Source: Nemertoderma westbladi
Lineage: Eukaryota; Animalia; Xenacoelomorpha
Reading direction: 5' to 3'
DNA length: 51,576 bases
Assembly (NCBI GenBank): GCA_032718475.1
Contig: JAUCBJ010002662.1
Coordinates: 1 to 51,576, forward strand
Below, piece by piece: positions 9,841 through 39,553 of the stretch. The notes under the pieces are model-generated. The model searched no databases. It saw only the letters and a list, made by a program, of their open reading frames with translations, and was not told the DNA's origin. A program made the position numbers and the translations under genes. The stretch's first letter is position 1; the number at the start of each line of letters is the position of its first letter.

Positions 9841-12018
9841 TTTTGATTGTACAGTTGAATGCCTACTGCTATATTACAGTTAAAGCAAGTCTAGTAATTC
9901 AGTATTACTGTTAGCCTAACAATTAATTACCGATACTGCTACTCAGTGTAGCGTGATATATATAATATATTAGAATACCGGTATGCTTATAGTAGATATA
10001 TAAGTATTATTACAGACTAGATTTGTCACAGAATACCGGTATATAATTTTAGCACAAATATATATAAATATATAATAGGCCTATCGTGAATACCGGTATA
10101 CAGCTGACACTTATAGTATATATAAGTATAATTATTACAGACTAGAGTTAATTACAGAATACCGTTATGATTTCAGCCTAAATTTATAGAAATAAATATA
10201 ATAAGCCTATTGTAAATACCGGTATGTCAATTATTTTAAAATAATTGAATTGCTGAAGGTTAGGGGTTACTTGGTTACTTTACTTACTTTATTACCGTTA
10301 TTTGAGCAGCTGTCCAACTGATATTAAGACCTAAGTGTTGTATAACAGGCCTACTATTTTATTAATAGATTTAGTGGATTTATATGTACCCGTATGAGGG
10401 GTTTTGTTACAATATTGAAATAGATGTTACTATTTCTGGGAAATAATCACTACACAGAAGCTGTGCGCTCTCAGTGAAGTGCTACTTATTGGACACTAAA
10501 ACAGATAATTCTACTTCCTAAGTTACTTAATACTACAATAACGTACAATTCGGGATGAGATTACAATTTCTAAATAAATACAAAAAATTACAAAAAACAC
10601 AAATACGAATTTTTAGGGTAATTTTACAAGAAGTCTACAAACCAGCCTAACAAAGGGTTAGAAATCTGGTTATTACAAATGGACAGGATACTACGGTATT
10701 TGAAAATAATAAGTAGTAGTAAATACACTGCGTTGTCCAGATAGGAAAATACCACCACCTGACGACCTATAGCCGTATCGCTATAGGTACTACGTTATGT
10801 ATCACGGAGTGTCCCTACCTAGAAGTTAATTACCGCGGTCTACCAGAACCAACGTGCCTATTAACCACTTTACAACACAAATATACTGCCTACACACTAA
10901 TTACCTTCGGAAAGCACTGTACACTAAACCCTAAATTAGGTACAAGTACTTGTACAACAAATAATCAGTAGTTAAAAATACTTGAACAGCTAAAAGAACC
11001 ACGGCATCTGCTGGAGTGACCGGTGCACAAAATCACCAGTCTTTACCTACGCCAAGCAGCCCGTGTAGTACCGGGGTTAATTTAACTATAACGGTATATA
11101 TAACAAGCACAATTACTGTAGGAATAAACTTAGGGATATGAATGTTGCGAATAATCGCATAAACTCTGAATAATAAATATTACGCTACCCGTACAGAATA
11201 CTCAAACAAAATACAAACTAAACGCTGGCAGACTACCATCAAGCCTAAATAAACTACAGTATGTGCAGATTCCAAAATGGTTAGTTAGTATGCGTTCTAA
11301 CACGGTAGTACGACTTATTCTTTAGGAGGGGGTTGACCTTACAACTCAAGATGCCCCAACTTACTAACTGGCACTTTATCGGACAGACTCTACACACGCA
11401 GCAATCTCTTCAGACCTAATAACAGCTAGACAACAATCCAGCCTACAAAATATCTGAGTAATAACTATTACGGTACCTGAACAGACCACACAAACAAACA
11501 CAGGCTAAAACGCTGGCAGACTACTATCAAGCCCAAATAAACTACAGGACATGCAGACTCCGAAATGGTTAGGTAGTATGCGTTCTAACCTAGTAGTACG
11601 ACTTATTCTTTAGGTGGGGATTTACCTTACAGCTCTGGCTGCCCCTACTTCCTAACCGTTCTTTATTGGACATACACTCTACATGCACTGCAATCCGTTC
11701 AGACTTAACAACAGTCAGAACAACAGTTCAGCCTACAAATTATCTGTACAATCTGAGCAGGGTTACACGCCTTCTGCTCAATATTAGCCTACTAGTAAAT
11801 AAAACTGACAGAAATAAGTAAAAATCCCAATAAAAAACCAGGGCTGCAGTCCCCGATTTAATATCAAGACCTACCGGTATATAATTATCAAAATCGAATA
11901 ATACTGCTGTACCTGTACTGTTGTAAGTACCGGTCCGGATGAACAGGCAGTCAGGCCTACTGGTTACCGGTCGACCGGTACTTTAGTCTTGATCGCTTAT
12001 GCCGCAATCAAGATCCTA

Positions 12019-12029
12019 CAAACTGTTAT
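12019..12029 (-). promoter_or_regulatory. Element B PBS-position sequence ATAACAGTTTG (not tRNA-type; complementary to LTR 12790-12800)
   Basis: Directly follows the 5' LTR on the minus strand; no TGG; exact 11-nt reverse complement lies inside the LTR. Confidence 0.7.
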
Positions 12030-13246
12030 TGTTCGCGCTTTTAAGACCTTTGGCAGTTTAACCCGCCAAATCTATATGTCTTCTAGGTTATAAATCTACT
12101 CCAGCCTATGACAAGTATTGAACACCTATAATAATTCTAACATTAGCCGAAGCCAATCTGTGCGCGACCATTCACCCGCTGGATATACCCGGGAGACTGG
12201 ATTCGGATGCTTTAATTTGATTGCGGTGCAGGCCTACCGTACTATTCGATTGATCGTTAATATATAATCTCTGACAAATATTATTCACTTTCGGGAAATA
12301 TTAGCAGTTCCTTTAGGACGTGGCGCTTTATCTATTTAAACAGAGCTATGACTTACACTATACACAACGGTATGTCTTATAGATCACCAAAGTGCATTCT
12401 TTAGGAAATGCTTTGTTACTCGGTCAACCACACACAGACTATTGCACACAACTGCACACTGAATTGCCGATATTCACTGATTTTAATCATATATAAAGAG
12501 AACAGCAACCAACATTTGTAGGGCCTATTAAGTAGCATTGAACTCACTACAAACCACAATAATGTATGTCGCAAATTGTTATATGTAACCGGTCTCTCTA
12601 ACCTTAGTGTATCAAGAAGATTGGGTTTTCGGATCGTTATCAATATTCTTCCCAATAATAATATGTAAACGAATGATACAATTAACAACAAAGTAAATAG
12701 CAGTAAATAATGCGGCGAAAAGCAGTTTACGTCAGGGTGCTTAATCAGATGCCGAGTTGACCAAGACCGAGACCGAGACCGAGGCTGAGATAACAGTTTG
12801 ATGATCTTATAATTAAAGACGCTCTAATGTCAGAAAACATTCCCCGGCCGGTGTTCTAGGCGTGGGGGAAACGTCAGTACTGAATCCTGTAATTCTGCTG
12901 TACAGCTTTTACACAAAGAGGGAAAAGCTCCACGTGGAAACAGCTGATAGATGTCGTCATTTTGAGCTGAGCAGAACAAAGAACCAAGGCAAGGCTCCGG
13001 GCAAGCTACACGTGTAAAGCTCAGCCGTTAGCTGTCGTCATAGTAACGACACTGTTTCAAGAGGATCTAGGGCGTTGCGTCATAGAATTGCTAATTATGT
13101 CCTCTAAAGTACACATACAGAAGAAATAGCTTTTATGTCCCCTAAAAACACCGGTACAGCAATGACACGGCCTTTTATGCCTGCTAAACCAACTACAGAG
13201 CACTTTACGGGGAAAATAACCGGGCAATTCCGCAAAAGCTTTTACA
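12030..13246 (-). repeat. Element B 5' LTR (1217 bp)
   Basis: Direct repeat of 1559-2804, followed by TSD TAGGC. Confidence 0.95.
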
Positions 13247-13251
13247 TAGGC

Positions 13252-14815
13252 CTATACTGGTACCAGTACAGCAGTATGACTACAGCATGCAAGGACATAA
13301 CATATACCCAGGGGAGGGGGGAATCATTGCGGATAGATGCATGGGCCCCAATATATTAACATCAACCCCAGTACCAAGCATACCGGTGGGGGGGGGGGCA
13401 GGGTGATATTCCCCCATATCAACAATATACCCCGATAGGAGCAAGAACAACGAGACCCTTGGATGGAAATAGGTCATGTGACACAGAAATATGGAGGGGG
13501 CCGCTACCCCCAATGACATATCCAAGCCAAAGAAAGGCAGAAAATAGGACGGGCGGACCACACCCAACAGGAGAAACTATACAACATCCATCGAATCCAT
13601 TGGAAGCGCAGGCGATGGGGATGGCCACGTTGATCGATGCATTAAAAACAAGGATCGAATTACCACCCGTGGAACCATTCAAATTCGATGGGAGTAGGCC
13701 GGAAGAATATCTCCAGTTTTGGCGTATGTATAGTAACGAAATACTAACAAAGAACTTGACGCAGGCGGAGTGCTTAAAGTATCTGCAAGTATACACTGGA
13801 GGCCCAGCATACGACATCGTGAGGCAATATCAGGGCATAGAGGGCGGCTTCACGACGGCATGGCGGGCACTGGACAGGGAATACGGGCACCCGGCAAGAT
13901 CATCAGGCAGACCAGACCCTGAGAGGCATAACATCGGGTGGTCTACAGGATAATCCCGTTAGCATTAAGACACTCGCGAACAAGGTCGAGAAGGCGCTAA
14001 TCGTGTTAAAGATGCTAGACGCGCCATACGAACTCAACGCGTCCAACAACATCACCACGATAGCGCAGGCGCTACCGATGTGGTTGCGCAACAAGTGGAG
14101 GAAAATCGCTTTCTCCACTCGAGATAGGAAGGGTGCGGAACCGGTTTAGAAGAAATGTCAAGCTTCTTAAACTACGAAGCTGAACTAATAACCGACCCAG
14201 TCTATAGCGAAAATAGCCTGGGAAAGGGACCGAAGACGGATTACCATAGACCGAAACCAGAGCACAATACGTCAAACGCATTACCGAAGCTCAGGCAATC
14301 ACTGCCATATGCAGCGACGCAGAGGACTGCAAGTCCACAGGTAGCCGAAGGTAAGACCACACCATGGAACGGACAGGGGAACAATAACAACACGAATAAA
14401 TATAACCCCAGTACGTCCAGTAGGCCGAACCCAAACAATAAGAATAGTAGGGACTTTGGTACAAATGCAGCTGCGATACGCAATGCACTGTATAGTGTAT
14501 AATGAGGGCTACGACCCAAAGAGCAAATGCCAGCTACATACAAATGCGCTTCATCAAACCATGAACTGCAGGTACTGGCAAGCGCTACCCAGGGAAGATC
14601 AGGTAGAATATGCGGCGAGGAATGAGATCTGCTCGCGATGTGTGATGAGTGGACATAGAGCTAGGCAATGCAAGGAGACGCCAGTCAAGTTCGGTCAAAG
14701 GAAAGGCCAAACGATGGCAACGAGCACAGTAGGGGCGAAGAAGAGAGGAACGGTGCTACTTGGGGTAGTACCTGTGCGAGTGATTGGAGAAGGCAATTGA
14801 TCAGTAACAACACTA
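13252..14815 (+). pseudogene. gag: Element A gag, capsid and zinc-knuckle region, frameshifted
   Basis: ELPPVEPFKFDGSRPEEYLQFW…AWRALDREYGHP (DUF1759-type), CQLHTNALHQTMNC and CSRCVMSGHRARQC knuckles, spread over several frames. Confidence 0.85.
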
Positions 14816-17800
14816 ATGCTGGTTGATAGTGGAGCTGCCTTCACATTAGTCGAGGATTGGGTGGCCGAAGAAATTGGATTGAGAACGAGGCCAAGTAGAA
14901 TGGCGGTAACAACCATCTCCAGCAAAGATGAGGTCCTGGAGATGAGAACCGGACGGTGCACCATTGCAGCAATAGCGCCAGGATGCGACTATGGGGCGAG
15001 CATCGACCCCATCCAAGTGATAGAGTCAATAAACATCAATGCCAGACGGCCAACCAACATCGAGGTCAAACAATATAAATTTCTGGATGATATCGACTTC
15101 TCAATCCCAGAGGTGGACGTTAGGAAGGTATCCATCATAGTAGGAATGGACTGCCCAACGGCCCACGAAAGAATGCAAACGGTCTTCGGCGAAGACAAGC
15201 AGTGTGACCCGGAGGCGATACTGACACCATTCGGGTGGACGCTGAGTGGCCCAATCAAGAGCAAGATACCATTTAGGATGTCGGAGACATCAGGATGCAT
15301 GTTCGCAGGAACTATGCAGGAAATGAGTGATGAGAGAGCAGAGGAGCAGCTTAAAAGACTGCTCAGACAGGATTTTGAAGGGTTAAAGGAGACTGGGGTC
15401 GGGACCTCGGTGGAAGACAAACAGGCTCAGCAGAGCGTAGCGGAGTCTATGAAATGCGACGAGGGGCGGTACACCATAGGAATGGTATGGAAGCTACCAA
15501 AGCTACCACTGCCCGATAATAGAGGGATGGTACTCACGAGGCTCCGCAAGCTGAAGCAGACACTAAAACGGAGCCCCGAGAAGAATGAGTACATCCACAG
15601 AACGATTAAGAAGTACGTCGAGAAAGGATGGGCCGTGGAGTTACCGGTCGACGAACCAAACACAGACAGGACATATTACCTGCCACTCCACGTGGCTTTA
15701 GACCCAAAGAAAGGTAAACTGCGGATGGTAGTTGACGCATCGGCAAAGACCAACGGAAAATGCTTAAACGACAATTGACTAGAAGGTCCGAACATATACA
15801 ACTCAGGGATAGAGGTCCTACTTAGATTTAGAAATGGGAAACATGCCTTCACGTGTGACATAGAAGGCATGTTCAACCAAGTCCGTGTAACGGAGGAAGA
15901 TAGCGACAGTCAACGCTTCTTGTGGTACAACGGTGACAAAGAACCGTCGATAATACCGACGTACAAGATGGTAGTACAGAACATGGGAGCCAAGTTGTCT
16001 TCATTTACGACGACTATGGCAGTAAGAGATACAGTGAAGGGGAAGGAGGATAGATACAGCACTAGGGCCGTCGATATGATTCGACGCGGCTTCTACGTAG
16101 ACGACGGAATGGAGTTTGGAAATACGGTTAAGGAGATACTGGACACAGGGCGCGAGGTTCGCGACATCCTAAAAGGATCCGGCTTTAACCTGACCAAATT
16201 CCAATCCAGTTTGGAGGAATTTATCAAGGCGATAGGGGACGAGAGACCAGAATCGACCATGGATAATCCCACAACAGCCAAAGGGCAGGACATGGCGAAC
16301 AAGAGGACAGAATCTCAACAGAAGGCACTGGGAATCGTGTGGAACAGAGAGACAGATGAACTGAAGTACCAGCTGAGCCAGGAGGGCGCAGACATCCACA
16401 CAAAGAGAGGCTATGTGTCATACATAGCAAGAATATACGATCCCCTAGGTCTAGCATCCCCACTATTAGTCACGGGGAAACAGATACTCAAGAGAGTATA
16501 CAAACTGAAGGATGAGTGGGACGTAGAGGTACCAGAGGAGATCAAGAAACAGTGGTGTAAGTGGAAAGAAGGTTTGGAGAAGATGGGAACATACAACATG
16601 CCGAGAGTGTATTTCCCGGATGGGAACATGACGAATCTGGACTTACACATGTTCTCCGATGCGTCGTTGGAGGCGTACGGAGCGGCACTCTATTTAGTAC
16701 AACGAGAGGGGGCTCACAAGCCCAGACTGGCCTTTAGCAAAGCTAAGTCAACGCCGCCAGATTCAGCATCAGTTCCCAAACTAGAATTGACAGCTGCCAG
16801 ACTAGGAGTTAGGGCCACAGCCTACCTAGTGGATACTATTCCCAACATAGTGGAGACACACTACTGGACGGATTCCATGGTAGTGCTTGGTTGGCTACAT
16901 AACGAAAGGACGAGATACCCTATATTCGTCGCAAATAGGGTGGATGAGATAAGGGCGACCACAGAATTGGAAAGGTGGCACTACTGCCCAACGGACGAGA
17001 ACCCAGCGGACTTGTTATCAAGGGGCGTGGCACGCCACACTTTCTTAAAAAGGGAAGGATTGTGGCAACACAGGCTGCAGTTTCTGAGCGACAAGGAGGC
17101 CTGGCCGCCGATGAGAAAGATGGACCCAGGCTCAGGAGAGGTAGTGTCAGAAGGAGAAGAGGGAGATTCAGAGGGAGAAGAGACATACTCCCAGATGGTG
17201 AGGGAGATAAGGGACGTGCAACCTAAGCCAGAAGAACTGTGCGATAACCCGACGGTTAAACTCCTCAGCTACAGCTCTAGTTGGTACAAGACCAAGAAAC
17301 TAGTGGCGTACTGGAGAGCCTTCGGGAATTTCCTTGCGGGAGTTGGCAAATGTAAGAAGATCAGGACAACAATAGATCTGTAAGAAGCCGCCAAAGCAGT
17401 AATCCGCTATGAACAACGGAAGAGCTATGGCGACAAGGTGGAACGCGTCGGTAAACAACAGCACCTTCGACGGGACAGCGAGCTGATCACGCTGTCGCCA
17501 CAACTTAATGACGACAGGATTCTAGTAATGAATTCTAGGGTGGGATACAACAACAGCATAGTCGTACCACCGAAACCCATCATCATTCCCACAGGATCGC
17601 CAATAGTTCACCAGATTATCTGGGACTCCCACAAGTCGATATTGCACGGGGGCACCAACCGAACTCTTATGGAGATACGGAGGACCTTTTGGGTCAAGCA
17701 GTTGAGGAAGAAGGTAAAAGCAGTAGTGGGGCAGTGCCAGACCTGCCGACGAGCGAAGAAGGAGCGAGCCATACAAAAGATGGCACCACTACCAGCGAGT

Positions 17801-18710
17801 AGAGTAAGACAGCACGACCCGCCATTTACACATTGCGGTGTGGACATGTTCGGGCCGATAAAGATCAAGGTGATGCGGCACACGGAGAAACGCTACGGTA
17901 TTATCTTCGTATGTAACAACACGCATCAGCATCACGCAACAACACCCAAGATGCAACCGCATCAGCATTTATTAATGCATTAGAAAGGTTCAGAGACCGC
18001 AAAGGTGGGACGATCGCAGTAATGTACTCCGACAGCAGAACCAACTTTGTGGGAGCAGAGAACGAGATGGCAGAGGCCTTGGACATCCTGGAAGGGGAGG
18101 AAGTCAGGGCAGCCATGAGACGACGACAAGTAAAGTGGGAGAGAAGGACGCCGTATGCACCACATACACTAGGATGCGTCGAGAGACTGGTGGGCAGTTT
18201 GAAGCGTCTCATGACGAAGTTAATGAACACCCACATGGTCACGGAGGACGTCTTGAGAACAGTACTTGCGAAGTGCGAGGGTATCATTAATAGCAGACCG
18301 CTATATCCGGAGAATGATGACCCTGAGTCATTAGATGTGCTGACGCCCAGCCATTTTCTAATGGAAAGGCCAGCGACCATCAATATGCGGGGTGTAGACC
18401 CAGATGACATACACTCCCGCCAGAGTTGGAAGGTCGCTAAAGCGATAAGCGCAGAGTACTGGAGAAGGTTGGTTGAGGAATACCTACCCACGCTTCACAA
18501 AAGAAGCAAGTGGAGGAAGTCGAATAGGGAGTTAAGAGAGGGAGATCTCGTAATCGTTACGGATGATACTATCATCAACAACCAGTGGCAGATGAGGACG
18601 GAAGAGTCCGATCGGTAGAAGTGCGGATAGGTGGCAAGATAGGTGCGAAAGACAGAAAAACCTACAGGAGAGCTGTAGGGAAATGCTGTCTATTAGAAGG
18701 GACACCTTAG
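14816..18710 (+). pseudogene. pol: Element A pol: protease, RT, RNase H (peptidase A17-type region), integrase; stops and frameshifts
   Basis: LVDSGA; YYLPLH…KLRMVVDAS; FYVDD; LHMFSDASLEAYGA; WHYCPTDENPADLLSRG; HKSILHGG…CQTC; GVDMFGP; SDSRTNF; LTPSHFL; EYLPTLHKRSKW; in-frame stops at 15776-15778 and 17381-17383. Confidence 0.93.
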
Positions 18711-18847
18711 GGTGGAGTTAGAGTGTAGTTTAGTCGTCCAAGTTTTGGACTGAGGGGGGTGGGACTGAGGGCGAGACGCCCTTCCCACACATAAAATAAA
18801 AATAAAATAAAAAATAATTAGAGTTAGAATTTGTTAGTTAGTTAGGA

Positions 18848-19287
18848 GGTACGTAGTACTGAAAATAGTTAGTTAGTTAGAAGGTACATAGTACCGAAAG
18901 TTAGAGTTGGAAGTTAGTAAGAGGGTACGTAGTACCGATAGTTAGTGGAGTTAGAGGTTAGTAAGAGGGTACGTAGTACCGGTTAGTAAGAGTAGAGTTG
19001 GAAGTTAGTAAGAGGGTACGTAGTACCGATAGTTAGTGGAGTTAGAGGTTAGTAAGAGGGTACGTAATACCGGTTAGTAAGAGTAGAGTTGGAAGTTAGT
19101 AAGAGGGTACGTAGTACCGATAGTTAGTGGAGTTAGAGAGTAGTAAGAGGGTACGTAGTACCGTTAGTGGAGTTAGAGTAAGAGTTAGAGGGTACGTAGT
19201 ACCGCTAGTTAGGGAGAGAGAGTAAGAGTTAGAGGGTACGTAGTACCGCTAGTTAGTTGGAGGTTAGTAAGAGGGTACGTAGTACCG
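18848..19287 (+). repeat. Array of ~11 GGTAC-GTA-GTACC mini-hairpins in 35-47-bp purine-rich units
   Basis: Core gagggtacgtagtaccg repeated with related gttagt/agagt spacers, directly after pol. Confidence 0.9.
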
Positions 19288-19418
19288 ATTAGTAAGAGAT
19301 AGAGGTGGAAGGGTATATATAGTATAGATATTTGTCAGTAGTTAGTAGCGAGAGGGGGGCATATGAGTACAGTTGGATAGATCGTGTAGGCCACGCGACA
19401 TATACTGCTGTACTGCAC

Positions 19419-20576
19419 GGTTCCATGTAAATTGAACCAACGTCAATTGAACCACGTCAATTGAAACACGTCAATTGAACCATGCGTCAATTGACCCAGC
19501 GTCAATTAAACCAGCTGCAATTGAACCAAGCGTCAATTGAACCAAGTGTCAGTTGAACCAAGTGGCAATTGAACCAAACGTCTGTTGAACCAAACGTCAA
19601 TTGAACCAAATGTCAATTGAACCAAACGTCAATTGAACCACGTCAATTGAAACACGTCAATTGAACCATGCGTCAATTGACCCAGCGTCAATTAAACCAG
19701 CTGCAATTGAACCAAGCGTCAATTGAACCAAGCGTCAATTAAACCAAGCGTCAATTGAACCAAGTGTCAGTTGAACCAAGTGGCAATGGAACCAAACGTC
19801 TGTTGAACCAAATGTCAATTGAACCAAACGTCAATTGAACCAAGCATAAATAAACCCATAATCAAATAAAGAATCAATGAAATTAATTCCTATCAGTGTT
19901 GTGAAAAATACACTACAAATATAGAAAAATAATTCTATTAAAAACTATAGTGATTAAAAATTAAGATTCTAGAATCTTAAAAAAGCATAGTTGAACATTT
20001 CACTAAAATATAAAAGAGTGAAAAGAGTTATTACGTGCAGACAAAATAAAATAATCAATGGAAAACTACAAGTCGGAGCGGGGTGGCGAAGTTGTAAGTT
20101 ATAATGGGTACGAATATATAGTAAGAGTGAAAAAGATGGAATGAAAAACTGGAGGAGTAGAGCCTATCGAAAATACAAATGCAAAGCTACCATGATAACA
20201 AAAGGCAAGGATATAAAAAAAGAATCTGGTGAACACTCACATAGTGCCAAATCAAAAATTTGCAATAATTATTATTTTGTTGGTTAAATTAACATTTCAT
20301 TAAATTGATGCTTGGGTCAATTGACGCATGGGTCAATTGATGCATGGGTCAATTGACGCTTGGTTCAATAGACGCTTGGTTCAATTGACACTTGGTTAAA
20401 TTGACATTAGGATCAATTGATGGGTGATAAACTTTGGTTCTAATGACGTATGGTTCAATTGACGTTTGGTTCAATTGACGTTGGTTCAATTGACACAATG
20501 TTAAATTGACGTTGGTTCAATTGACGATGTTCAATTGACGTGGTTCAATTGACTTTGGTTCAGTTGACGTGTCACC
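19419..20576. mobile_element. Foldback-type non-autonomous DNA transposon, probably Mutator-like
   Basis: 9-bp TSD GTACTGCAC (19410-19418 and 20577-20585), GG…CC termini, long inverted arms built from ~14-16-bp tandem units (cgtcaattgaaccaa / ttggttcaattgacg), AT-rich core. Confidence 0.85.
20058..20242 (+). pseudogene. FLYWCH zinc-finger remnant (N-terminus of a MULE-type transposase)
   Basis: Manual translation with one frameshift: MENYKSERGGEVVSYNGYEY…SEKDGMKNWRSRAYRKYKCKATMITKGKDIKKESGEHSH; fits the FLYWCH pattern (GY.Y…WrC…C.A…H.H) with the first Cys changed to Ser. Confidence 0.7.
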
Positions 20577-20938
20577 GTACTGCACAGGCCCATAGAATAG
20601 GTCAGAATGTGGATTATGGAATAGAATAATCCATAAACAGTAAAGTAGTAGAATTAAGTTAAATTAAAAATAAATATAATAAATAGGGCTAAATATTACA
20701 AATTATAGTAACAAGCGGGGAAATTATTCTGGAACATAATTAAAGCAACGGACAGAAATTGTAAATAGGGTACATTTGTTAGCTACAAAATTAGGTAATA
20801 GGAATTTAGGCTAAAAGGCGTAGTTAGATAGGAAATAAGCCATTCTCGAACTGTGCAGACCATCAGAAACGTATCACTCATCTGTATTGCGCCTTGGTAA
20901 GGCACCACCTTACAGGTGAGCGAGTGAGAGTGTTCGGA

Positions 20939-23488
20939 ATGGCGGGAAAACTGATCAGAAAGAGAAAGGCGGAACAAGGAGGAAAGTAGATACTGGTGGA
21001 TTTCACCAAGAGGCATCCGGAAGAGAAGACGAGAGGATACTACGAGAGGTTGGAAAAGGGTCACGCGGCACGAGCGCTGCAGGACCACTTCCAGGAGATG
21101 CACGAACAGCGGCTGGTCGGGACCTACGGGACGCCGTCGCTGGACAACGCAATCTTCCAACACTTCCACTACGTGGTGAAAGGGGACGAGGCGAAGTTCG
21201 GGATTCCGAAGTACCCGAGGGAGTCGCCGAAGAAGGATTGGAAGAGGTTTATAGAGTCCGTCAACAGGGGAGGATATATGATCCTAGATGATGAGGGAAC
21301 CGTGGAAGACGAGGAGGGTTCGAGACGAGGATCAGCGGGGTCGGCCAGGACCATACTCCTACATTTGGCCGCGCCAAATGGGGACATTTTCTTATTCGAT
21401 CTAGGAACGTATGGGAAAAGGGACGGGCCGAAATTAAACCGGTTGCCGAAAGCGGTGCAAGTCCTGGTAAGAGAGAAGTCGACGACGAAGGTAGGATCGG
21501 CGATTCGCGACGACGCGGAGAGAATCATCGGTCCGGACACCCCCAACCTTCTGGACATGCAGGTGGTCTTCATGGCTATGACAGCACCGGACGGGTTAGA
21601 AGTAGTGGAGAACACAGGCCAGTGCGGAGCGGTGGCGATGGGCCAGCTATTGGGGCTCGTGTGTCATAAGTCGACGGACTGGGGAAAGTTCAGAGAAGAG
21701 TACGGATCAGAGTTGGCGAACTCGCTGAAGTGGGGAGCGAGGCCAGGAAAGCAAGAGGTGTATCAATTCCGAAGAGGAGCGATAAAGGTATATCAGAAGC
21801 AATATATCCTGCAGGAAGATTGGATAATGATAAGTTTGCTTAACTTATTCATGACCGTGGTTATCGAGAGGGAACCAGCGGCATTTCTGTTATCGGGATC
21901 ACCCCTAAGCTACAGGAGAGCCTTTAAGACGGCCTTTGACGGTCTGGTAGACCACCTGGGGCTGAAGGGCGAGTCGGTGTACTACAACAGCCGACATCTG
22001 ATAGACGGGGAGATAGATACGCCGTATCAGAGATGGGAGCAGCTAGAGACGGATAGACGAGAGGCAAAGCAACTGGAAGAAGTCGCGAGACGGGAAAGGA
22101 TAGAAGCAGAGGAGAGGGAGGAGGAGGCCAGGACGCATAGTTACGGCTTCGAGGAACAGGCAGGCTTAGACGAACTTCGTTGGACTTCATCAGGGAGTTC
22201 GGGGGAGTCTCTAGGGCGAGAACTGGGATGGACGGTGGGATCGCCGAAACAGTCGACGTTGGGGTTGCAAGCGATGCCCATACCAGCGGGCGCCGAAGGC
22301 GACCAACCGCCAAGGAAGTTAGGGGAGCTAGAGGGATGGAGAGCTACGGGCGAGAGCCAGGGTGGGAAGGGACATAGTGGATCCATCGGGAAAGCGGGGT
22401 TGGAGCCACTGCCAGAGGAGGACAAAGACGACGACGAGTTCGGAGAGATGCCGCCCATCGAGAGGATTGGCCACTCGGACACGGACTGGGTTGGCGGGAG
22501 GGTGGTGACGGCCAGTGGAGCGAGGGCCTTCTGGGATAGACCCGGCAAGCGGGCCTGGGTGCACGAGGAGCCGGCGATGGATTTCGCGGGGAGCACTATC
22601 AGGTTGGGCGAGCAACCGGGGACGGCACCACGGGTAGTATTCGCGGAGACGATGCCCGAGAGGGGCGAGGAGATCGACGTAGACAGGGACACTAACGTGC
22701 AGAAGTTCGCCTACCAGCGACTCCACAGACCGCGGAGATAGCTTGGGACGAAAGGTACTTGGTTACTCGGTTGCGATTACTGTGGGAGACAGACCCACCA
22801 GGAAAGGAGCTGTTTGTACCGATTCCAAAAGGGGACCTTTTGTCTCTACTGCCGCGAGTTGAGCCACAGGATGGGGGCATGTCCACGGTTGCATAACCGA
22901 TGTCCGAAGTGTAACTTTCGAGGACACTACGGACGCCAGTGCGACTGGATGGACGATGAAGAAAAGTTCAAAATCTTCAAGGAGTGGGCTGACGTCGGGG
23001 CCATGACGCGGCAACGCATGAAGGCCCAGGAGTTCAAGTGGGGTTTTTTCCTTATCAATCAGGAGGCTCACTTGGAAATCATAAAGCGGAGGTTACCGTT
23101 TACCTATCAAGAGGTAGCAACGGCGGCGTCGTATGCCGGAGTGATAAATACACAAAGGTATTTGGACAGGTGGACGCCACAGAACCGAGGGGAGTTTAGG
23201 GATTTCTTGGCGGAGCATGTGCCGTGAGCAATGAAGATGATCTTATGGGACGCCACCAGGGGGAGACAACAGGGCCATTCGGAGGGGCCACCCGCGAAGC
23301 GATATCGGGAGCTGATAACACCAGCACCCAAGGAGCCAACGACCGGGATCAGTAAGGAGGTGGCGGCGAGAGTCCGAAGACAGAAAGCGGATCCCAGGGG
23401 AGCGGTAGTGACCAGGAAACGACCCAGGGAGGAGGACGGCAAAGGGAAAGACTTGAGGTGGTTCCCGAAGTCAGGAGGGATAGACTGA
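20939..23488 (+). pseudogene. Accessory ORF of element A: DEDDy (RNase D/WRN-like) 3'-5' exonuclease-like domain, acidic linker, 3x CCHC knuckles, basic tail
   Basis: ATG 20939 and ORFs 20996-22741, 22814-23227, 23231-23488 are one frame with stops at 20987-20989, 22739-22741 and 23225-23227. Motifs YMILDDEG, ILLHLAAPNGDIFLFDL, LPKAVQVLVREKSTTKVGSAIRDDAERI, LLDMQ, QKQYILQED; CDYCGRQTHQERSC, CLYCRELSHRMGAC, CPKCNFRGHYGRQC. Confidence 0.75.
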
Positions 23489-24189
23489 GGCTTCGATGTG
23501 GTACACCTGGAAGGCACCACGGGAGACGTGCGAACTATTAAGTACAAATTCAAAATGATGCAAATAATCAAATAAGTGCAATTTGTATGTACGTACGTAG
23601 TAATCAGTAGTTTAGTAATGAAATATACGTTCGAAGTAAGTACTATAGTCATTCAACCTTTCTCAATTAGCTACTGGGACTGGGGGGCTAACTGACTATG
23701 GTACTATGGACGAGACACCAGACGATTTCACACTTCTTGAGTGCGACGGCACAGGAGGGGGGGTGAGATTCGTCAGAAGGGATGAGATAGTCAAAGAGGG
23801 GTTGAGTAAAGGTGATAGTGCGGAGTGCGGAGAGAGTGCGGATGCAATTCAAGTGTGGGGGGGGGGAGAATAAGAGGCTGAGTGAGGGACAGGGAAGTCC
23901 GAGAGTTAGAGCGGTAGTGAGGAGAAGTAGAGGAGAGTCAGGGTGAGAACAGTGTGGAGTTAAAGTGGCAAAAGTGTTGGGGAAACAAAGGTCGTGTGAG
24001 AGGAGCGCACAATCGGCCCGACATGGGATGCCAGGCGAACTGGGTAGCATTATCATACCCATAGGGAGCGGCCTGGAAAGCCGGCTCCGAGAGAAAATAG
24101 TTCCACCCCACACCCAATGCTAGATCGGGATCCAGCGGAATTGTAGCGCACTTTAGGAGGATGCTATCCTCTCACCGGGAAGATATCAT

Positions 24190-24198
24190 AGGGGGGAG
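24190..24198 (+). promoter_or_regulatory. Polypurine tract AGGGGGGAG of element A
   Basis: Purine run immediately before TGTTAG, the usual arrangement in front of a 3' LTR. Confidence 0.7.
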
Positions 24199-24733
24199 TG
24201 TTAGCGTATTCAATTCCGCTAACACAAACCCATAAAGTAAGCCGTTAAGCAATGTTGGGGGCCACGAGGTTGATTACCCAATGTCGTGCCACCCCAATAA
24301 AATGGGAAGGAGAAACACACAATAAGGGTCAGGGGCCACACCCCTGACCAAGAGAGAATAGCAGGAGTGAGGGGAAACACTCCAAAGGGCGCCAACAGGG
24401 ATATTCGCCAATGGGAGGGAGGCACCGGCTAGGTACAGTAACAAGGCCAACCTGTGCAATATAACCAATTGACAGTAATCAGTTATTTCAGTTATCTCAT
24501 TGTGTTGGTCGGTTTAGCTAGGATAGGACCGGAACTTTAATTACCGTTGCGTAACCACTGTGCAGACATCCTATTCCATATCTATACTATTATACTTTAT
24601 ACATAGGACTTTATACAGCAATCAACAACCATCCACCTTTTACACACACACGGCGGGAACGCGTAAATCAAAAACCGGATAAACCAGGATCCTTTGTGGA
24701 TCCCGTCACAAACCGTAAGAGAATCAACTAACA
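24199..24733 (+). repeat. Probable 3' LTR of element A (535 bp)
   Basis: Starts TGTTAG after the PPT, ends CTAACA (6-bp inverted termini); contains AATAAA, CCAAT and a TATA-like AATATAA. Partner LTR not in window. Confidence 0.65.
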
Positions 24734-25131
24734 CAACTAACTAATAATGAGTGATTACAAGAGTTATATCATTGACACATATTGGTTTTAGCCCTACACT
24801 ACTGGGTGGCCTCTAATATCCAACGGATGCGCTCTTGTCCTCCCCAACGTGCTTCCCTGCCCGCTATTGGCTTAAATACTAATTGTCACTTCGCCACTCC
24901 CTGTTGGTGTTACCCCCTGGTGCTAGCCTCACTAGCTGGTTTCTCCCTATGAGGTGGTTTGACCTCTCACCTCTCTCTGTGGCTTTATGGCGTGTATCCC
25001 CCCCCCCCCCCCCCCCCCCAGTTGGTTATGAGGTGAGATTATTAATGGTAATCTCACATCGCCAACTATATTGGTAAAATGTCACTAGTCCCATTCTCGG
25101 TGGGTAGTGCTCGGAATTGAATCCGCTTTCA
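24734..25131 (-). repeat. Fragment of a related LTR in opposite orientation, interrupted by element A
   Basis: Minus strand from 25131 reads TGAAAGCGGATTCAATTCCG, 17/20 identical to the A LTR start TGTTAGCGTATTCAATTCCG; shared ccaacaggg and gccaat motifs further in. Confidence 0.5.
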
Positions 25132-25673
25132 TACACTGCAGTTATTCTTCTACCTTGTAGCTGTTTGTTTGTACCAATGGAAAGCTGATACAAATATAGG
25201 ATTACAAATATATAAAACAATTTGAATTTTGTTGAAAAATAGCTAAGATATTGGCGTTCAGATGTTGCATGGTTATGCACCTGCGCGAGGCTATTTTATT
25301 CTATTTAAAAAATGCATCATAATCTGGAATATTTTGTTTATCCAAATACGTAGCTGGGCAACAATGCATTACATCTTTAATCATAATATTACGTAGCTAT
25401 TCATACATTTAAAAAATGTTCCAGAATATGGTTTATTTATTAATATAATAAAATAGCCTAGCGTCTTTGCAAAACCATGCAACATTTGAACGCTAATATC
25501 TCAGCTATTTTTCAACGAAATTCAAATTGTGTTACATATGTGGAATCCTTGCATGGCCAGCTTTCCATTGGTACCAACAAACAGCTTTAAGGTAGAAGAA
25601 TAACCTGCGGTGTAACTGGTGAAATATTGCTGGAGACACTTTTTTTAAAACACCTTTTTTCTGGGACATGGTG
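25132..25673. mobile_element. Palindromic MITE (Tc1/mariner-like), left end cut off by the LTR insertion
   Basis: 25132-~25300 is an imperfect inverted repeat of ~25445-25615; the right arm continues to …ttttctgggacatggtg followed by TA. Confidence 0.65.
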
Positions 25674-28370: not shown

Positions 28371-28887
28371 TTAACCTATATAGTTAGCGATGGCCTGCGG
28401 CTTTAGGAGCGGCCGCGGTATTCACCTCCCTCATAGCGGCCGCGGCGGTGTTGCGTCAAATGGAGAAATATTTATCCAACCAAGTATGATGCATAATAAT
28501 GGTTTCCTATTTTATGGTAAAATTAATTGAATAATATCTATAGAAAATGTAACATTAGGGGCCAACCACCAGAAAATGATAAAACTTGAACATTTATTTA
28601 TTACAATAGTACATGCTAACTTAATATAAACATATGTAACTACGACTATAAGTTAGTTATGAGTCGTATGATATAGAAAGTATAAAAAGTTGCGAATATT
28701 CAGAATAAATATAAAAATATATAAATAAATAAATGTGCATGTAGAGTAAGTTAACGAAAATAAATTTTATTTATTCCAGAAAATTGCTATTTAACCGATT
28801 TATAACCAACTTTTGAGGAATTTGATTGAATTATTATTTTTTCCTATAAATATATTATGGAAATGAAAGAAAAGTAAATCATTTTCC

Positions 28888-29460
28888 TAAAATGGATGAT
28901 GTTCACTATAAAATGAATGATGTTCACTATAAAATGGATGATGTTCACTATAAAATGGATGATGTTCACTATAAAATGGATGATGTTCACTATAAAATGG
29001 ATGATGTTCACTATAAAATGGATGATGTTCACTATAAAATGGATGATGTTCACTATAAAATGGATGATGTTCACTATAAAATGGATGATGTTCACTATAA
29101 AATGGATGATGTTCACTATAAAATGGATGATGTTCACTATAAAATGGATGATGTTCACTATAAAATGGATGATGTTCACTATAAAATGGATGATGTTCAC
29201 TATAAAATGGATGATGTTCACTATAAAATGGATGATGTTCACTATAAAATGGATGATGTTCACTATAAAATGGATGATGTTCACTATAAAATGGATGATG
29301 TTCACTATAAAATGGATGATGTTCACTATAAAATGGATGATGTTCACTATAAAATGGATGATGTTCACTATAAAATGGATGATGTTCACTATAAAATGGA
29401 TGATGTTCACTATAAAATGGATGATGTTCACTATAAAATGGATGATGTTCACTATAAAAT
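28888..29460. repeat. 21-bp minisatellite (TAAAATGGATGATGTTCACTA) x ~27
   Basis: Near-perfect tandem array, one variant unit (atgaatg) near the left end. Confidence 0.97.
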
Positions 29461-29656
29461 CCATTGGATGGATAACAAATCGGCTGAATCATTTCCCTAC
29501 CAAACGATACATACGTTCCTGTATACCGGATAGACTTATCATCAGCCAGTAACCACAATTCGTTGTATTTGTAGAGTTTAGGGGTTAATGGTACTGTGAG
29601 ACAGATATCCAACGTCTAGCGGTACTAAACCTACCAGAGGCGTAGCAAGACCTTAT

Positions 29657-30077: not shown

Positions 30078-31083
30078 GGCTGAGGGGAACGTGCCCCCCG
30101 TCGCTACGCCTTTGGGTGAGTGCGGCCGAGGGGAACGTGCCCCTGCCCCCTCGCTACGCCTCTAGGTGAGTGCAGCCTAGAACTAGAACAAAATCGCCTC
30201 CGCTTTGCAGGACATTGCTTTCGCCGTGAGGACCAGCCAGTGCATAATCTTGTACTTTGGCAGCCTCATGGAGTGAATAAGCATGGTGGACAGCCCATGA
30301 CTTTCTTGAGACGCATCTTAAAGGACACTGGCCTTAAAGATGCGGATGATCTAGCAAATGTCATGGGTGATAGGGAGTTGTGGCGGTGCAATTTTGTTGA
30401 CAAGCCGGCAAAGCATTCTTAAAAATGCAGCTGCAATGCAGCATGCCGATCCTAGTAGTAGTAGAGTGCAGCCTAGGGGAACGTGCCCCCCGTCACTACA
30501 CCTCTGGGTGAGTGCGGCCGAGGGGAACGTGCCCCTGCCCCCTCGCTACGCCTCTAGGTGAGTGCGGCCGAGGGTAATGTGCCCCACCCTCGCTACGCCT
30601 CTGGGTGAGTGCGGCCGAGGGGAACGTGCCCCTGCCCCCTCGCTACGCCTCTAGGTGAGTGCGGCCGAGGGTAATGTGCCCCACCCTAGCTACGCCTCTA
30701 GGTGAGTGCGGCCTAGGGGAACGTGCCCCCCGTCACTACACCTCTAGGTGAGTGCGGCCTAGGGGAACGTGCCCCCCGTCACTACACCTCTGGGTGAGTG
30801 CGGCCGAGGGGAACGTGCCCCTGCCCCCTCGCTACGCCTCTAGGTGAGTGCGGCCGAGGGTAACGTGCCCCTGCCCCCTCGCTACGCCTCTAGGTGAGTG
30901 CGGCCGAGGGTAATGTGCCCCACACTAGCTACGCCTCTAGGTGAGTGCGGCCTAGGGGAACGTGCCCCCCTGACTACGCCTCAGGGTAAGTGCGGCTGAG
31001 GGGAACGTTCCCATGCCCCCTCACTACGCCTCTAGATGAGTGCAGCTGAGGGGAACGTGCCCCCCTTGCTATGCCTCTGGGTG
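30078..31083 (+). repeat. GC-rich ~46-52-bp satellite, left part
   Basis: Units ggtgagtgcggccgaggggaacgtgcccc(tgccc)ctcgctacgcctct(a/g). Confidence 0.95.
30181..30463 (+). mobile_element. RTE-clade LINE 3' fragment
   Basis: RLRFAGHCFR…LVLWQPHG…DTG…MGDRELWR is the typical RTE ORF C-terminus; (TAG)4 tail; 13-bp TSD GAGTGCAGCCTAG (30168-30180, 30464-30476). Confidence 0.85.
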
Positions 31084-32244
31084 TGTAAAAGCTTTTGCGT
31101 AATTAGCCGGTTATTATCCCTGTAAAGTACTCTGTGGTTGGTTTACCAGGCATAAAAAGGCCGTGTCCTTGCTGTACTGGTGTTTTAGAGGACATAAAAG
31201 CCATTTCTTCTGTATTTGTACTTTAGAGGACATAATCCGCAATTTCGTGACGCAAAAAGCTCGATACTCTTGAAAACAGTGTCGCTACCATGACGACGGC
31301 TAACAGCTGATATTGCCACGTCGACATTTCTTTGTTTCTTTGTTCTCTCGTTGTTCGGTCGACCAATCAGAGCGTTTTTTGTCTCTGTGTTGGAGGTGGA
31401 TACAGAAACTCAGGAATTCAGTGTTATGTTTTTGCCCAGAGCCTAAGAACACCGGCTTTTGGCACCTCCGTGTTTCAGTCTTTAGTCTTACATTAGTAGG
31501 CTTAATTATAGAACGTATATCTGTTATCAATGCAATTCATATCTCAACTAACTAAACATATCATGCATATCTTACTTAACATTACTGCTTTTGCTGTCGG
31601 TTATTCATTATATTTGTTGATGGAAGATTATATTTGGAATACTGATCAATAGTCAGACACCCCAATCTTCTTGATATACTAAAGGTTAGAGAGACCGGTT
31701 ACAGATAAACGATTGCGACTTATGTTAAGTGTCGTGAAGTGAATCTAATGCTATTTTATAGGCCCTACATGCATTGTCTGTTATTCTCTTTGTATGTGAC
31801 TAAAATTAGTGAAGGTCGGCAGATTGGTGTGCAGCATTGTGCAGCATTGTGTATGATTGTGACTGATAACAAAGCATCTCCTAAAGAATGCGCCATATAC
31901 GTGAATCTATAGCCATCTCATTGCGTCTAGTTTAAGTCATAACTCTGTTTACATATTTAGAGCGCCACGTCCTAAAGGAACTGTTAATATTTCCCGAAAG
32001 TGAATAATATTTGTCAGAGATTATATATTACGATCAGTCGAATAATACGGTAGGCTTACACCATCAATCATTAAGCTTCCGAATTCAGTCTCCCGGGTAT
32101 ATCCAGCGGGTGAATGATTGCGCATAGACTGGCTTCGGCTAATGTAGTGTATCAAATACTCGTCATAGGCTAAAGACTATATATCATCTAAAAGACATCC
32201 TAATTTGGCAGGTTAAACTGTCAAAGGTCTTAAAAGCGCAAACA
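31084..32244 (+). repeat. Element C 5' LTR
   Basis: TGTAAAAGC…GCGCAAACA; direct repeat of 44710-45870. Confidence 0.95.
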
Positions 32245-32255
32245 ATAACAGATAT
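32245..32255 (+). promoter_or_regulatory. Element C PBS-position sequence ATAACAGATAT (complementary to LTR 31517-31527)
   Basis: Directly follows the 5' LTR; no TGG; exact reverse complement ATATCTGTTAT lies inside the LTR. Confidence 0.7.
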
Positions 32256-34165
32256 TGCTTCTGGATTGCGGTGTAAGCAATCTAGTCGAAAGTACCGGTC
32301 GACCGGTAATCTGTAAGCCTGACTGCCTGATCATCCGAACCGGTACTTACAGTACAGGTACAGCAGTATTGTTCGATTTTTATAATTATATACCGGTAGG
32401 CCTTAATAATTAATCAGGGACGGCCGCCCTGGTTTTTTATTGAGATTTTACTTGTTTCTGTCAAGTTTTATTTATTTGTAGGTTAATATTGAGCAGAAGG
32501 CGTGTAAGCCTGCTCCGATTGTACAGATAATTTGTAGGCTGGACTGTTGTCTAACCGTTGTTAAGTCTGAACGGATTGCAGTGTGTGTAGAGCATCTGTC
32601 CGATAAAGTGCTAAGTTAGGAAAGTAGGGGCTTCAAGTGCTGTGAGGTAAACCCCCTGTGAAAGAATAAGTCGTACTACTGGGTTAGAACGCATACTAAC
32701 TAATCATTTCGGAGTCTGCATATACTGTAGTTTATTTAGGCTTGATAGTAGTCTGCCAGCGTTTGGTCTGTACTTTGTTTGTGTAGTCTGTACGGGTAGC
32801 GTATAATTTTATTTAGATAATTTGTAGGCTGGATAGTTGTCTGGCTGTTGTTGGGTTTGAGGAAATTTCGGTGTGTGTAGAGCATCTGTCCGAAAAAGTG
32901 CTAGTTGGGAACGTAGGGGCTTCAAGTGCTGTGAGGTAAACCCCCTGTGAAAGAATAAGTCGTACTACTGGGTTAGAACGCATACTAACTAATCATTTCG
33001 GAGTCTGCATATACCGTAGTTTGTTTAGGCTGGATAGTAGTCTGTCAGTATTTGGTCTGCATTTTGTTTGAGTGGTTTGTACGCGTAGCGTAATATTTAT
33101 TATTCAGAGTTTATGCGATTATTCGCAACATTCATATCCCCAAGTTTATTCCTACAGTAATTGTGTTTGTTATACATACCGTTATAGTTAAACTAACCCC
33201 GGTACTACATCAGGGCTGCTCGGCGTAGGTAAAGACTGGAGATTTTATGCTTTGGTCACTCCGGCAGATACCGTGGTTCTTTTAGCTGTTCAAGTATTTT
33301 TAACTACTAATTATTTGTCGTACAAGTACTTGTACCTAATTTAGGGTTTAGTGTACAGTACTTTCCGAAGGTGATTAGTGTGTAGGCAGTATATTTGTGT
33401 TGTAAAGTGGTTAATAGGCACGTTGGTTCTGGTAGACCGCGGTAATTAATCTCTAGGTAGGAACACTCCGTGATACATAACGTAGTACCTATGGCAATAC
33501 GGTTATAGGTCGTCAGGCGGTGGTATTTTCCTATCTGGACAACGCAGTATATTTACTACTACTTATTATTTTCAAATACCGTAGTAACCTGTCCGTTGTA
33601 ATAACCAGATATTCTAACCCTTTGTTAGGCTGGTTAGTAGACTTCTTGTAAAATTACCCTAAAAATTTGTATTTGTGTATTTGTAATTAAATTTTTTGTG
33701 TTTATTTAGAGATTGTAATCTCAACCCGAATTGTACGTAATTCGTAGTATTAAGTAACTTAGGTAAATTAGAATTATTTGTTTTAGTGTCTAATAAGTAG
33801 CACTCCACTGAGAGCGCACAGCTTATGTGTAGTGACTCCCCCAGAAATAATAACATTTATTTCAAACATTGACAAAACCCATTAAACAGGTATATATATA
33901 TATTATAAATCAACTCAAACGATTTATAAATAGTAGGCCTGCCATACAACAATTAGGTCTCAATATCAGTTGGACTACTGCTTAAATAACGGTAATAAGT
34001 AAGTTAAAGTAACCAAGTAACCCTTAAAATTCAGAAATTCAATTATTCTAAAATAATTGATATACCGGTATTTACAATAGGCTTATTATCTTTATTTTTA
34101 TAAATATAGGCTGAAATTATACCGGTATTCTGTAATTAATTCTAGTCTGTAATTATACTTATATA

Positions 34166-39549: not shown

Positions 39550-39553
39550 TAGG

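Follow-up and report, generated by a model that had tools for sequence, protein, structure and literature searches.

A predicted DEDDy exonuclease with three zinc knuckles encoded by a probable third gene of a BEL/Pao retrotransposon from Nemertoderma westbladi

The window, which is the whole stretch of DNA analysed, comprises 51,576 nucleotides from Nemertoderma westbladi (contig JAUCBJ010002662.1 of assembly GCA_032718475.1, forward strand). It starts inside a BEL/Pao retrotransposon (element A), the 5' LTR and PBS of which lie upstream of the window. Positions 1-1558 (+ strand) presumably represent the 5' part of its gag region, which runs off the window; a Pfam search gives no match there. 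This assignment is based on a nested element (element B). Because the same 5-bp target duplication occurs on both of its sides, positions 1558 and 13247 are contiguous in element A. The 3' part of gag (13247-14800, + strand) contains DUF1759 (PF03564, E=5.5e-7) and two degenerate knuckle-like motifs. The pol region (14801-18709, + strand, its end read by eye) codes for an aspartic protease (PF13650, 4.6e-5), a reverse transcriptase (PF00078, 1.4e-4, under the cut-off), the Pao RNase H region (PF05380, 4.7e-41), an integrase zinc finger (PF17921, 1.8e-13) and DUF5641 (PF18701, 1.5e-13). The domain order (PR-RT-RNase H-IN) with Pao-type families is that of the Belpaoviridae. Both gag and pol are broken by stops and frameshifts, and a comparison of pol with viral contigs is blank.

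Behind the pol stop lies a non-coding double-hairpin/G-run motif (18727-18785, + strand), recognised by contig depth and by folding (z=-2.0, with 8 of 200 shuffles equally good). It is common to many related families. Summed contig depth in the X1, X2 and X3 bins is 151k-280k for the motif (166k-280k in X1) versus 14k-146k for pol, and loose contig ends before 18727 look like diverged pol ends. Another LTR could begin at ~18751-18759, where TG follows a G-run. When metagenomes were scanned with an 18-base motif taken from downstream of pol, 22 loci came up. Protein similarity is absent from all of them and only two share a short stretch of DNA, at the motif; we therefore regard them as chance matches. 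The motif is followed by a purine-rich spacer of 44-91-bp tandem units (18800-19409, + strand) and by a nested foldback/MITE-like insertion of 1.16 kb with inverted arrays of 16-bp units (19419-20576, unstranded). Since this insertion carries a 9-bp target duplication (19410-19418 and 20577-20585), the spacer between pol and the next gene, ORF3, is contiguous.

Downstream of ORF3, a polypurine tract (PPT, 24190-24198, + strand) directly precedes the TG of a likely 3' LTR (24199-24710, + strand, TG...CA); a PPT of about 10 nt in this position is typical of Belpaoviridae. One contig joins the window exactly at 24199, coming from letters other than the PPT. X2 and X3 have contigs that stop at 24710, and five X5 contigs diverge from the window behind 24710 (agreement 0.57). 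The 3' end of the LTR is thus probably 24710; the end at 24733 given in the earlier note is disfavoured by the contig ends and is kept as an alternative. The 512 bp of this LTR, which is present in the window only as the 3' copy, compare with 0.2-1.2 kb in Belpaoviridae. The length of element A (at least 11.9 kb, nested inserts and missing 5' end excluded) exceeds the ICTV range of 4.2-10 kb (PMC8742986). A tRNA gene search found none, and an Rfam scan gave only two matches, both in repeats and far under the gathering score.

ORF3 (20939-23488, + strand) is a single frame of 849 codons with three internal stops (20987, 22739 and 23225) and zero frameshifts, exactly as read in the earlier note. 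Each of the remaining five frames has 17-48 stops in this interval. Among 2000 base shuffles of ORF3, the fewest stops in the best of three frames was 18, which rules out a chance frame or a sequencing artefact. The purine-rich strand bias that had been seen in both ORF3 and pol is borne out, with a purine share of the + strand of 0.58-0.64 across ORF3 and 0.57-0.63 across gag-pol. Between the N-terminal domain and the zinc knuckles (both described below), a charged helical stretch (aa ~311-400) and an acidic G/P/S-rich linker (aa ~401-600) are recognised by composition (21881-22738, + strand). A Pfam search of this region at E<=10 is blank, and Pfam detects no HRDC domain of the Rrp6 type in ORF3.

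As had been proposed, ORF3 occupies the position of env, between the BEL/Pao pol and the PPT/LTR. Env-like third genes are known from Belpaoviridae (BEL/Pao, Semotivirus; ICTV, PMC8742986; de la Chaux and Wagner, PMC3118150). Element A resembles these Belpaoviridae in its gag-PR-RT-RH-IN organisation, Pao-specific Pfam families, PPT, 0.5 kb LTR and third gene behind pol, but this third gene is nuclease-like and codes for no transmembrane helix; the best 19-residue Kyte-Doolittle mean (1.44) falls within the predicted nuclease domain. An env-like gene is therefore rejected, and a Pfam match is also lacking. A LINE ORF1 or a second gag is rejected as well, because no reverse transcriptase follows, the PPT/LTR comes next and there is no gag match in Pfam.

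The ORF3 family is abundant: contig pieces with 80-100% likeness number in the thousands, and there are deleted derivatives. A domesticated host gene is therefore rejected. At two of the stops, all contig depth reads otherwise (at 20987, 30, 16, 26 and 2 contigs in X1, X2, X3 and X5; at 22739, 36, 26, 18 and 5 contigs, respectively), and these first two stops are private to the window copy. For the selection test, 24 ORF rows were available among the best 40 of 978 variant rows, and the 22 non-stop rows were classed. Among the rows listed, 10 of 10 shared polymorphisms are synonymous (expected share 0.33, p=1.7e-5), compared with 3 of 12 changes private to the window copy (Fisher p=5e-4). No indel row falls inside ORF3 among the best 12 of 90. 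The view that ORF3 is a real extra gene, held in frame by purifying selection among sister copies, is supported.

The N-terminal region of ORF3 is likely to be a DEDDy-type 3'-5' exonuclease domain of the RNase D/WRN/EXD2 type, as judged from profile and alignment comparison (aa 88-314; 21200-21880, + strand). In the window copy, no stop interrupts this domain. The motifs on which the earlier note had based this assignment are in place: ILDDEG (aa 115), LLHLA (140), IFLFDL (150), KVGSAIRDD (184), LLDMQ (204) and the atypical Exo III, QKQYILQED (286). For the latter, the alignment selects E293 as the acid, not D294. The predicted catalytic sites are D117 (21287), E119 (21293), D192 (21512), Y289 (21803) and E293 (21815). 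In Exo I, D117 and E119 fall on invariant DEDDy columns; in Exo II, K184...D192 matches the Asp behind the strand-4 Lys; in Exo III (Y-x3-D), Y289 is kept, with E293 four residues on and D294 next to it. A MAFFT alignment of ORF3 and 38 DEDDy domains has just three invariant columns, which are occupied by D117, E119 and D192; YILQEDWI is placed on YAATDAWI in it. Comparison by hhalign with a profile of 50 DEDDy sequences gives a score of 27.8 (E=9e-4 for one comparison), which is reached by none of 300 shuffles and none of 155 natural decoys. In global mode, the domain is collinear with the profile from Exo I to Exo III, although that run set the D-x-E of Exo I out of register. A de novo alignment with 19 references aligns all five catalytic sites. 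This is achieved by five of 400 shuffles, and none of the 400 reaches the gap-penalised score.

The three zinc knuckles (22772-22942, + strand; aa 612-668) are present as previously read. C-x2-C-x4-H-x4-C starts at aa 612, 635 and 655, and Pfam zf-CCHC_4 matches with E=0.004, under the family cut-off.

The closest counterparts in the literature are the DEDDy ORF3s of the bdelloid LTR elements Juno and Vesta, and the DEDDy ORFs of Athena/Terminon elements (Rodriguez, Kenefick and Arkhipova 2017, PMC5408684). The following comparison is drawn from their published descriptions. The Juno/Vesta ORF3s are likewise RNase D-like, are separate ORFs behind pol in the env position, lack a transmembrane helix and have one catalytic Asp replaced by Glu. 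The tetrad is D-E-D-E here versus DEED in the rotifer ORFs, and the host is a BEL/Pao element here versus the Juno/Vesta lineages. With its 849 codons, ORF3 encodes an extended linker as well as three knuckles of the CCHC type; for the rotifer elements, knuckles are described in gag/pol, and Vesta2/5 have a Cys-His-Cys motif. Copy number and selection also differ: the present family is abundant and shows purifying selection, but those of the rotifers are reported as low-copy, with no significant departure from neutrality. The earlier note knew of no such architecture in BEL/Pao. This still holds for the literature searched, in which we found no report of a DEDDy third gene in BEL/Pao or of one with a knuckle array; for LTR elements in general, the rotifer ORF3s take precedence. 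Three features appear to be undescribed in the searched literature: BEL/Pao as the host lineage, a knuckle array in cargo of this kind and the evidence for purifying selection. The same kind of cargo is now seen in an abundant BEL/Pao family, which makes a probably convergent accessory function testable and widens the third gene of Belpaoviridae beyond env-like proteins.

Among host enzymes, the RNase D of Trypanosoma brucei (TbRND, PDB 7C42/7C45) consists of an exonuclease and a C-terminal zinc-finger domain (PMC7797062). In its layout, with several CCHC-type fingers behind a DEDDy exonuclease, it resembles what is predicted for ORF3, but it is a mitochondrial guide-RNA trimming enzyme of the host with ~350 residues, and its four fingers adjoin the domain, whereas ~300 linker residues separate domain and knuckles in ORF3. 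The PDB sequence search detects no direct homology between the two at E<=10. ORF3 shares its motif order (LxQLA...xFLFxL...KVG..I..D...W...Q..Y...[D/E].W) with the PF01612 enzymes WRN-exo, EXD2 and mut-7 (Nibbler). It differs from them in that it stays under all profile thresholds, has two ~12-residue insertions (flanking the conserved Trp) and has Glu as its last acid.

The means by which animal retrotransposons counter small-RNA silencing are poorly understood, and candidate enzymes encoded by the elements themselves are scarce. We tentatively propose that the ORF3 product is an exoribonuclease that would bind and degrade small silencing RNAs of the host, or their precursors, and would thereby shield the transcripts of the element from host defence. 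Small silencing RNAs as the substrate are a guess, and one that falls somewhat short of an even chance. Counting against this substrate is the 3' methylation of mature piRNAs, which protects them from enzymes of this kind. Catalysis would be of the two-metal type, with Glu as the last acid, and the RNA from which ORF3 is expressed may be a subgenomic one that is spliced or starts internally. The knuckles would serve as an RNA-gripping module by analogy with TbRND, the knuckle domain of which strongly raises RNA binding and the cleavage of small U-tailed RNAs (PMC7797062). DEDDy cargo is found in both LTR elements and the Penelope-like Terminons, which replicate differently (PMC5408684); a role in general counter-defence fits this better than one in some step that only LTR replication requires. 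Suppression of innate signalling is described for the DEDD domain of an arenavirus in a preprint (bioRxiv 10.1101/2021.02.01.429129). A suppressor acting in trans would also benefit copies without ORF3, so selection on it is harder to explain. The strongest version, in which an abundant BEL/Pao family swapped env for a captured, active DEDDy exoribonuclease with a triple knuckle that suppresses the piRNA/siRNA defence, is unlikely to hold in full. If true, the suppressor would explain the expansion of the family, and nuclease-plus-knuckle third genes would be a convergent counter-defence across LTR superfamilies.

An active DEDDy nuclease may instead work in cis within the RNP or particle of the element, with the knuckles tethering it to the genomic RNA while it trims 3' ends of primer, genomic RNA or cDNA. 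We consider this rather unlikely, even though purifying selection on a transposon gene is most easily explained by a benefit in cis. The ORF3 knuckles resemble nucleocapsid motifs, and those in the gag of the window copy are degenerate. The motif pattern that comes nearest to that of ORF3 (KVG..I..D, Y...D.W) belongs to a bacterial group that we class as WRN/EXD2-like; WRN and EXD2 act on DNA. ORF3 is, however, separate and not fused to Gag-Pol, so that packaging is not automatic, and Terminons carry the same cargo yet lack LTR-type priming. The two functions considered here, 3'-end processing and silencing, are also those suggested for the rotifer ORF3s in PMC5408684.

It is more doubtful still that ORF3 has a DEDD fold with little or no catalytic activity, used as an RNA-binding adaptor that localises or shields the element RNA in the manner of EXD1 or Egalitarian. 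The last acid is Glu in the window copy and in copies that differ only synonymously at this codon, and the best fold matches of a circular model (see below) include Egalitarian-RNA complexes. PMC5408684 lists EXD1 and Maelstrom as inactive DEDD derivatives, but judges the rotifer ORF3s, which also swap one Asp for Glu, as possibly active. In ORF3, an acid or Tyr is kept at all five catalytic positions.

A chance motif match in an alpha/beta domain, which would leave ORF3 an uncharacterised nucleic-acid-binding protein, is improbable: eight motifs, including the five catalytic sites, are collinear, and the scores were reached by none of the controls (0/300, 0/155 and 0/400). This explanation draws on the low identity to the references (13-21%) and on the library searches, all of which are blank. 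At E<=10, the domain has no match in Pfam (including PF01612) and NCBIfam, nor does ORF3 in PDB sequences. Word-index searches (proteins of 320-1021 and 146-468 residues) found no homologue, the sole match among 1.84 billion representatives is an unrelated bacterial repeat protein, and plasmids, viral contigs and metagenome contigs are blank. Three tests are weak or negative: HMMER with a 9-sequence profile (35 of 2000 shuffles score equally), hhalign with 17 WRN/EXD2-like sequences alone (not significant, 125 of 300 shuffles equally good) and mafft --add (339 of 400 shuffles and 113 of 147 decoys equally good). The last of these misaligned the real ORF3 sequence and is superseded by the de novo alignment with 19 references. 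An E of ~1e-3 for a family picked after the fact would not survive whole-library correction by itself. A single-sequence fold is unusable (pLDDT 36) and gives no structure match at Z>=5. A model built on DEDDy rows (pLDDT 70, pTM 0.71) matches DEDDy structures, with TbRND having the top TM-scores among the PDB matches listed (TMq 0.55-0.57), but these matches are circular because of how the model was built. Thus, of the Pfam and structure-prediction check suggested in the earlier note, the profile and alignment signal stands, while a Pfam match and an independent fold do not. Given the three weak or negative tests and the lack of an independent fold, DEDDy identity is likely, not proven. We predict that the domain works like a PF01612 member, without formal membership.

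ORF3 very probably belongs to the same element as the BEL/Pao pol upstream. Its codon usage correlates with that of the element A pol (r=0.58) and not with that of other elements (-0.12 and -0.32). It is highly improbable that ORF3 stems from a different, 5'-truncated LTR element, with element A ending in an LTR that starts near 18758. Such an origin would fit the sequence 50-90 bases behind the pol stop, where there are a G-run plus TG and an AATAAA within an A-rich tract, and the great contig depth of the motif there. Contigs were compared with pol and with ORF3 separately, and none bridging the two was seen. However, 24199-24710 has no copy in the interval from pol to ORF3; the deep motif extends to both sides of 18758, and the ends that lead into it are pol-like; the best 24 of 240 rows include no loose end at 18755-18760, with only 27 bases behind it open to comparison; and pol and ORF3 have codon usage and strand bias in common.

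For the leader of ORF3 (20839-20943, + strand), folding predicts a long hairpin that contains the start codon (z=-2.4, with 4 of 200 shuffles equally good). A possible splice acceptor of this leader, a candidate picked by eye from the sequence, ends at 20915.

ORF3 (20939-23488, +), the third-gene candidate of the decayed BEL/Pao element A, is a real accessory gene under selection. It probably codes for a DEDDy exonuclease with three knuckles and is probably the third gene of a BEL/Pao family. The frame is as the earlier note had described it, with 849 codons, three internal stops (20987, 22739 and 23225) and no frameshift. The remaining five frames carry 17-48 stops across the same region, and the best forward frame always held at least 18 stops when the bases were shuffled 2000 times. 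The exonuclease-type motifs are located where that note had placed them, and the three C-x2-C-x4-H-x4-C knuckles were recovered at residues 612, 635 and 655 (numbered from the ATG). Beyond the first domain, the protein has a charged helical stretch followed by an acidic G/P/S-rich linker. Both ends are basic, and no transmembrane helix was found in the protein (best 19-residue hydropathy, 1.44). The region C-terminal to the knuckles (22961-23224) codes for about 80 hydrophobic residues, which are probably helical and may be an extra domain; they have no Pfam match.

Sister copies were sought among the contigs of sequencing runs. Five of six runs contain part of the stretch; they represent one organism and at most three studies, and none is recorded as RNA. 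Two runs (X1 and X2) are from a single sample, which may be the source of the window. Contig pieces match 20590-24990 (9318, 6284, 5799 and 140 per run; 80-100% likeness) and the pol region 17900-18830 (2852, 1509, 1425 and 71 per run), and both parts come from abundant repeat families. At the first two stops of ORF3, the entire contig depth differs from the window, so these breaks are private to the window copy. For the third stop, copies that differ are represented only by loose contig ends in runs X2 and X3. Variants were classed for the 40 best-supported of 978, a non-random set, of which 24 (including two stop positions, which were removed) are in ORF3. Among these, all 10 variants common to the copies are synonymous (expected fraction 0.33; p=1.7e-5), as are 3 of the 12 private to the window copy. 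The share threshold was 0.97, and position 20974 (share 0.968) is borderline; when it is reclassed, the counts are 9 of 9 (shared) and 4 of 13 (private). None of the 12 indels considered (of 90) falls in ORF3; they cluster right before the ATG and after the stop. Internal deletions are present in some individual contigs of the ORF3 region. Synonymous-only shared variants and the lack of ORF3 indels, among the variants considered, argue for a frame kept by selection at the family level and decaying copy by copy.

For the N-terminal domain, library and homologue searches were blank (Pfam, NCBIfam, PDB sequences, and protein, plasmid, viral and metagenome sets), so that the Pfam comparison suggested in the earlier note gave no match, and single-sequence fold prediction yielded no usable model. 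Reference sets were therefore made from PF01612 genes. Against 9 DEDDy sequences, hhalign places Exo I and Exo II in register (P=4.5e-4, for a family picked after the fact, as in all profile tests). Against 50, it scores 27.8, and none of 300 shuffles (mean 12.7) or of 155 natural decoys (160 segments, less 5 from the strand carrying RNase D) scores as high. The global hhalign alignment is collinear through the W-ARP and Q..Y motifs, although Exo I is out of register in it. In a 39-row alignment, D117, E119 and D192 fall on its three invariant columns, and YILQEDWI of ORF3 pairs with YAATDAWI. Against 19 references, all five catalytic sites (D117, E119, D192, Y289 and E293) align, which 5 of 400 shuffles equal, and the gap-penalised score is reached by 0 of 400. 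We consider it quite likely that the domain is of the DEDDy type. An AlphaFold model built on DEDDy rows (pLDDT 69.6, pTM 0.71) matches EXD2, Egalitarian, trypanosome RNase D and giant-virus exonucleases; since DEDDy rows were supplied to the model, these matches indicate only compatibility with the fold.

The earlier note knew of no such architecture in BEL/Pao. This holds for the openly searchable literature (that is, outside Repbase, Dfam and GyDB), in which we found no report of an exonuclease gene in BEL/Pao. The ICTV Belpaoviridae profile gives gag, pol and env-like genes only (PMC8742986), and the word "exonuclease" does not occur in the accessible main text of PMC3118150. DEDDy cargo as such is, however, known from bdelloid LTR elements: the available part of PMC5408684 describes RNase D-like ORF3s (DEED) in Juno and Vesta, and also in Terminons, with putative activity and no significant departure from neutrality. 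PMC6431247 restates this account.

ORF3 would be expressed from a subgenomic RNA, either spliced to an acceptor-like site ending at 20915 or begun internally; its start codon is predicted to lie within a hairpin, one that 4 of 200 shuffles equal. The knuckles may hold single-stranded RNA and pass its 3' end to the predicted nuclease, by analogy with trypanosome RND, whose binding and cleavage drop when the finger domain is removed (PMC7797062, accessible text). As substrate we tentatively favour small silencing RNAs of the host, or the precursors of these, because the same cargo is found on retroelements with different replication modes. A rival role, in which the protein acts in cis and trims the ends of primer, RNA or cDNA, is rather unlikely. 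That the domain is a dead adaptor binding RNA is improbable. The tetrad reads D-E-D-E and the Tyr is retained; the listed copy variant of the E293 codon is synonymous only, so the Glu is, among the variants considered, no lesion private to the window copy. Less probable still is that ORF3 has no DEDD domain at all, although the HMMER test is weak (35 of 2000 shuffles score as well), the WRN/EXD2-like subset alone lacks significance in hhalign (125 of 300 shuffles as good) and the mafft --add test is negative.

Upstream of ORF3, element A codes for gag (DUF1759), protease, RT, Peptidase_A17 (E=4.7e-41), an integrase zinc finger and DUF5641. It spans at least 11.9 kb, compared to genomes of 4.2-10 kb in the ICTV profile (PMC8742986). 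Its pol (+) stops at about 18709 (read by eye) and is followed by a hairpin/G-run motif, tandem repeats, a foldback/MITE-like insertion (19419-20576), a short spacer and ORF3. The insertion has inverted arrays of a 16-bp unit and a 9-bp target duplication, which we take to be of Mutator-like length. The motif adjoining the pol stop (18727-18785) is a non-coding double hairpin with a G-run; its contig depth far exceeds that of pol, and it has no Rfam match. It is reached from many diverged pol-like ends and is a candidate cis element that related BEL/Pao families have conserved.

ORF3 is very likely linked to element A. Its codon usage correlates with that of A's pol (r=0.58; -0.12 with the gag of element B and -0.32 with the LINE RT), and the purine-rich strand bias reported earlier is indeed common to both. 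There is no LTR copy between pol and ORF3, and one diverged X5 contig joins the ORF3 start to the spacer beside the foldback site. That ORF3 sits in a separate element is highly improbable. In favour of this reading, no contig bridging pol and ORF3 was seen among those matched (the two regions were matched separately), and the motif contains both a G-run and a TG, at a contig depth much above that of pol. Against it, the contigs that lead into the motif come from diverged pol-like ends, and the 24 of 240 contig-end positions considered include no loose end at 18755-18760, although contigs cover only 27 bases beyond.

ORF3 is followed by a purine-rich spacer (0.7 kb), a polypurine tract (24190-24198, +) and, directly after it, TG at 24199. 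No second copy of 24190-24760 exists within the window. One X3 contig joins exactly at 24199 from non-PPT letters, contigs end at 24710 in X2 and X3, and five X5 contigs continue past 24710 unlike the window (agreement 0.57). Thus, the LTR probably runs from 24199 to 24710 (TG...CA); the end first proposed, 24733, is less probable, although it would give a longer terminal inverted match. In X1, summed contig depth, which is not copy number, peaks at 183k over 23971-24411 (PPT and LTR start) versus 20-77k across ORF3. This suggests more families or deleted derivatives with the same end than with ORF3. A second foldback-like self-complementary stretch (78% over about 480 bases) lies 3' of the LTR (25132-25614).

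Elements B (1559-13246, -) and C (31083-45870, +) are two copies, about 86% alike, of one LTR element. They code for a long DUF1759 gag and a protease-like end, beyond which no long ORF occurs for about 3 kb, and no RT or integrase of the element itself was found. Their LTRs are about 1.2 kb (pairs 96.9% alike in B and 99.7% in C), and both resemble young, non-autonomous derivatives of BEL/Pao. B splits A's gag, with a 5-bp duplication, and C lies inside a GC-rich satellite. C has an insertion absent from B (37122-39549, +). It contains an RT (RVT_1, E=6e-29) whose codon usage differs from that of A, and it is probably a LINE fragment oriented as C. Satellites occur at 28741-29586, 30078-31086, 45871-48062 and 48915-49330; they comprise a near-perfect 21-bp array, from which the open frames near 28850-29600 arise, a GC-rich 46-50-bp array interrupted by C, and a 208-bp tandem pair.
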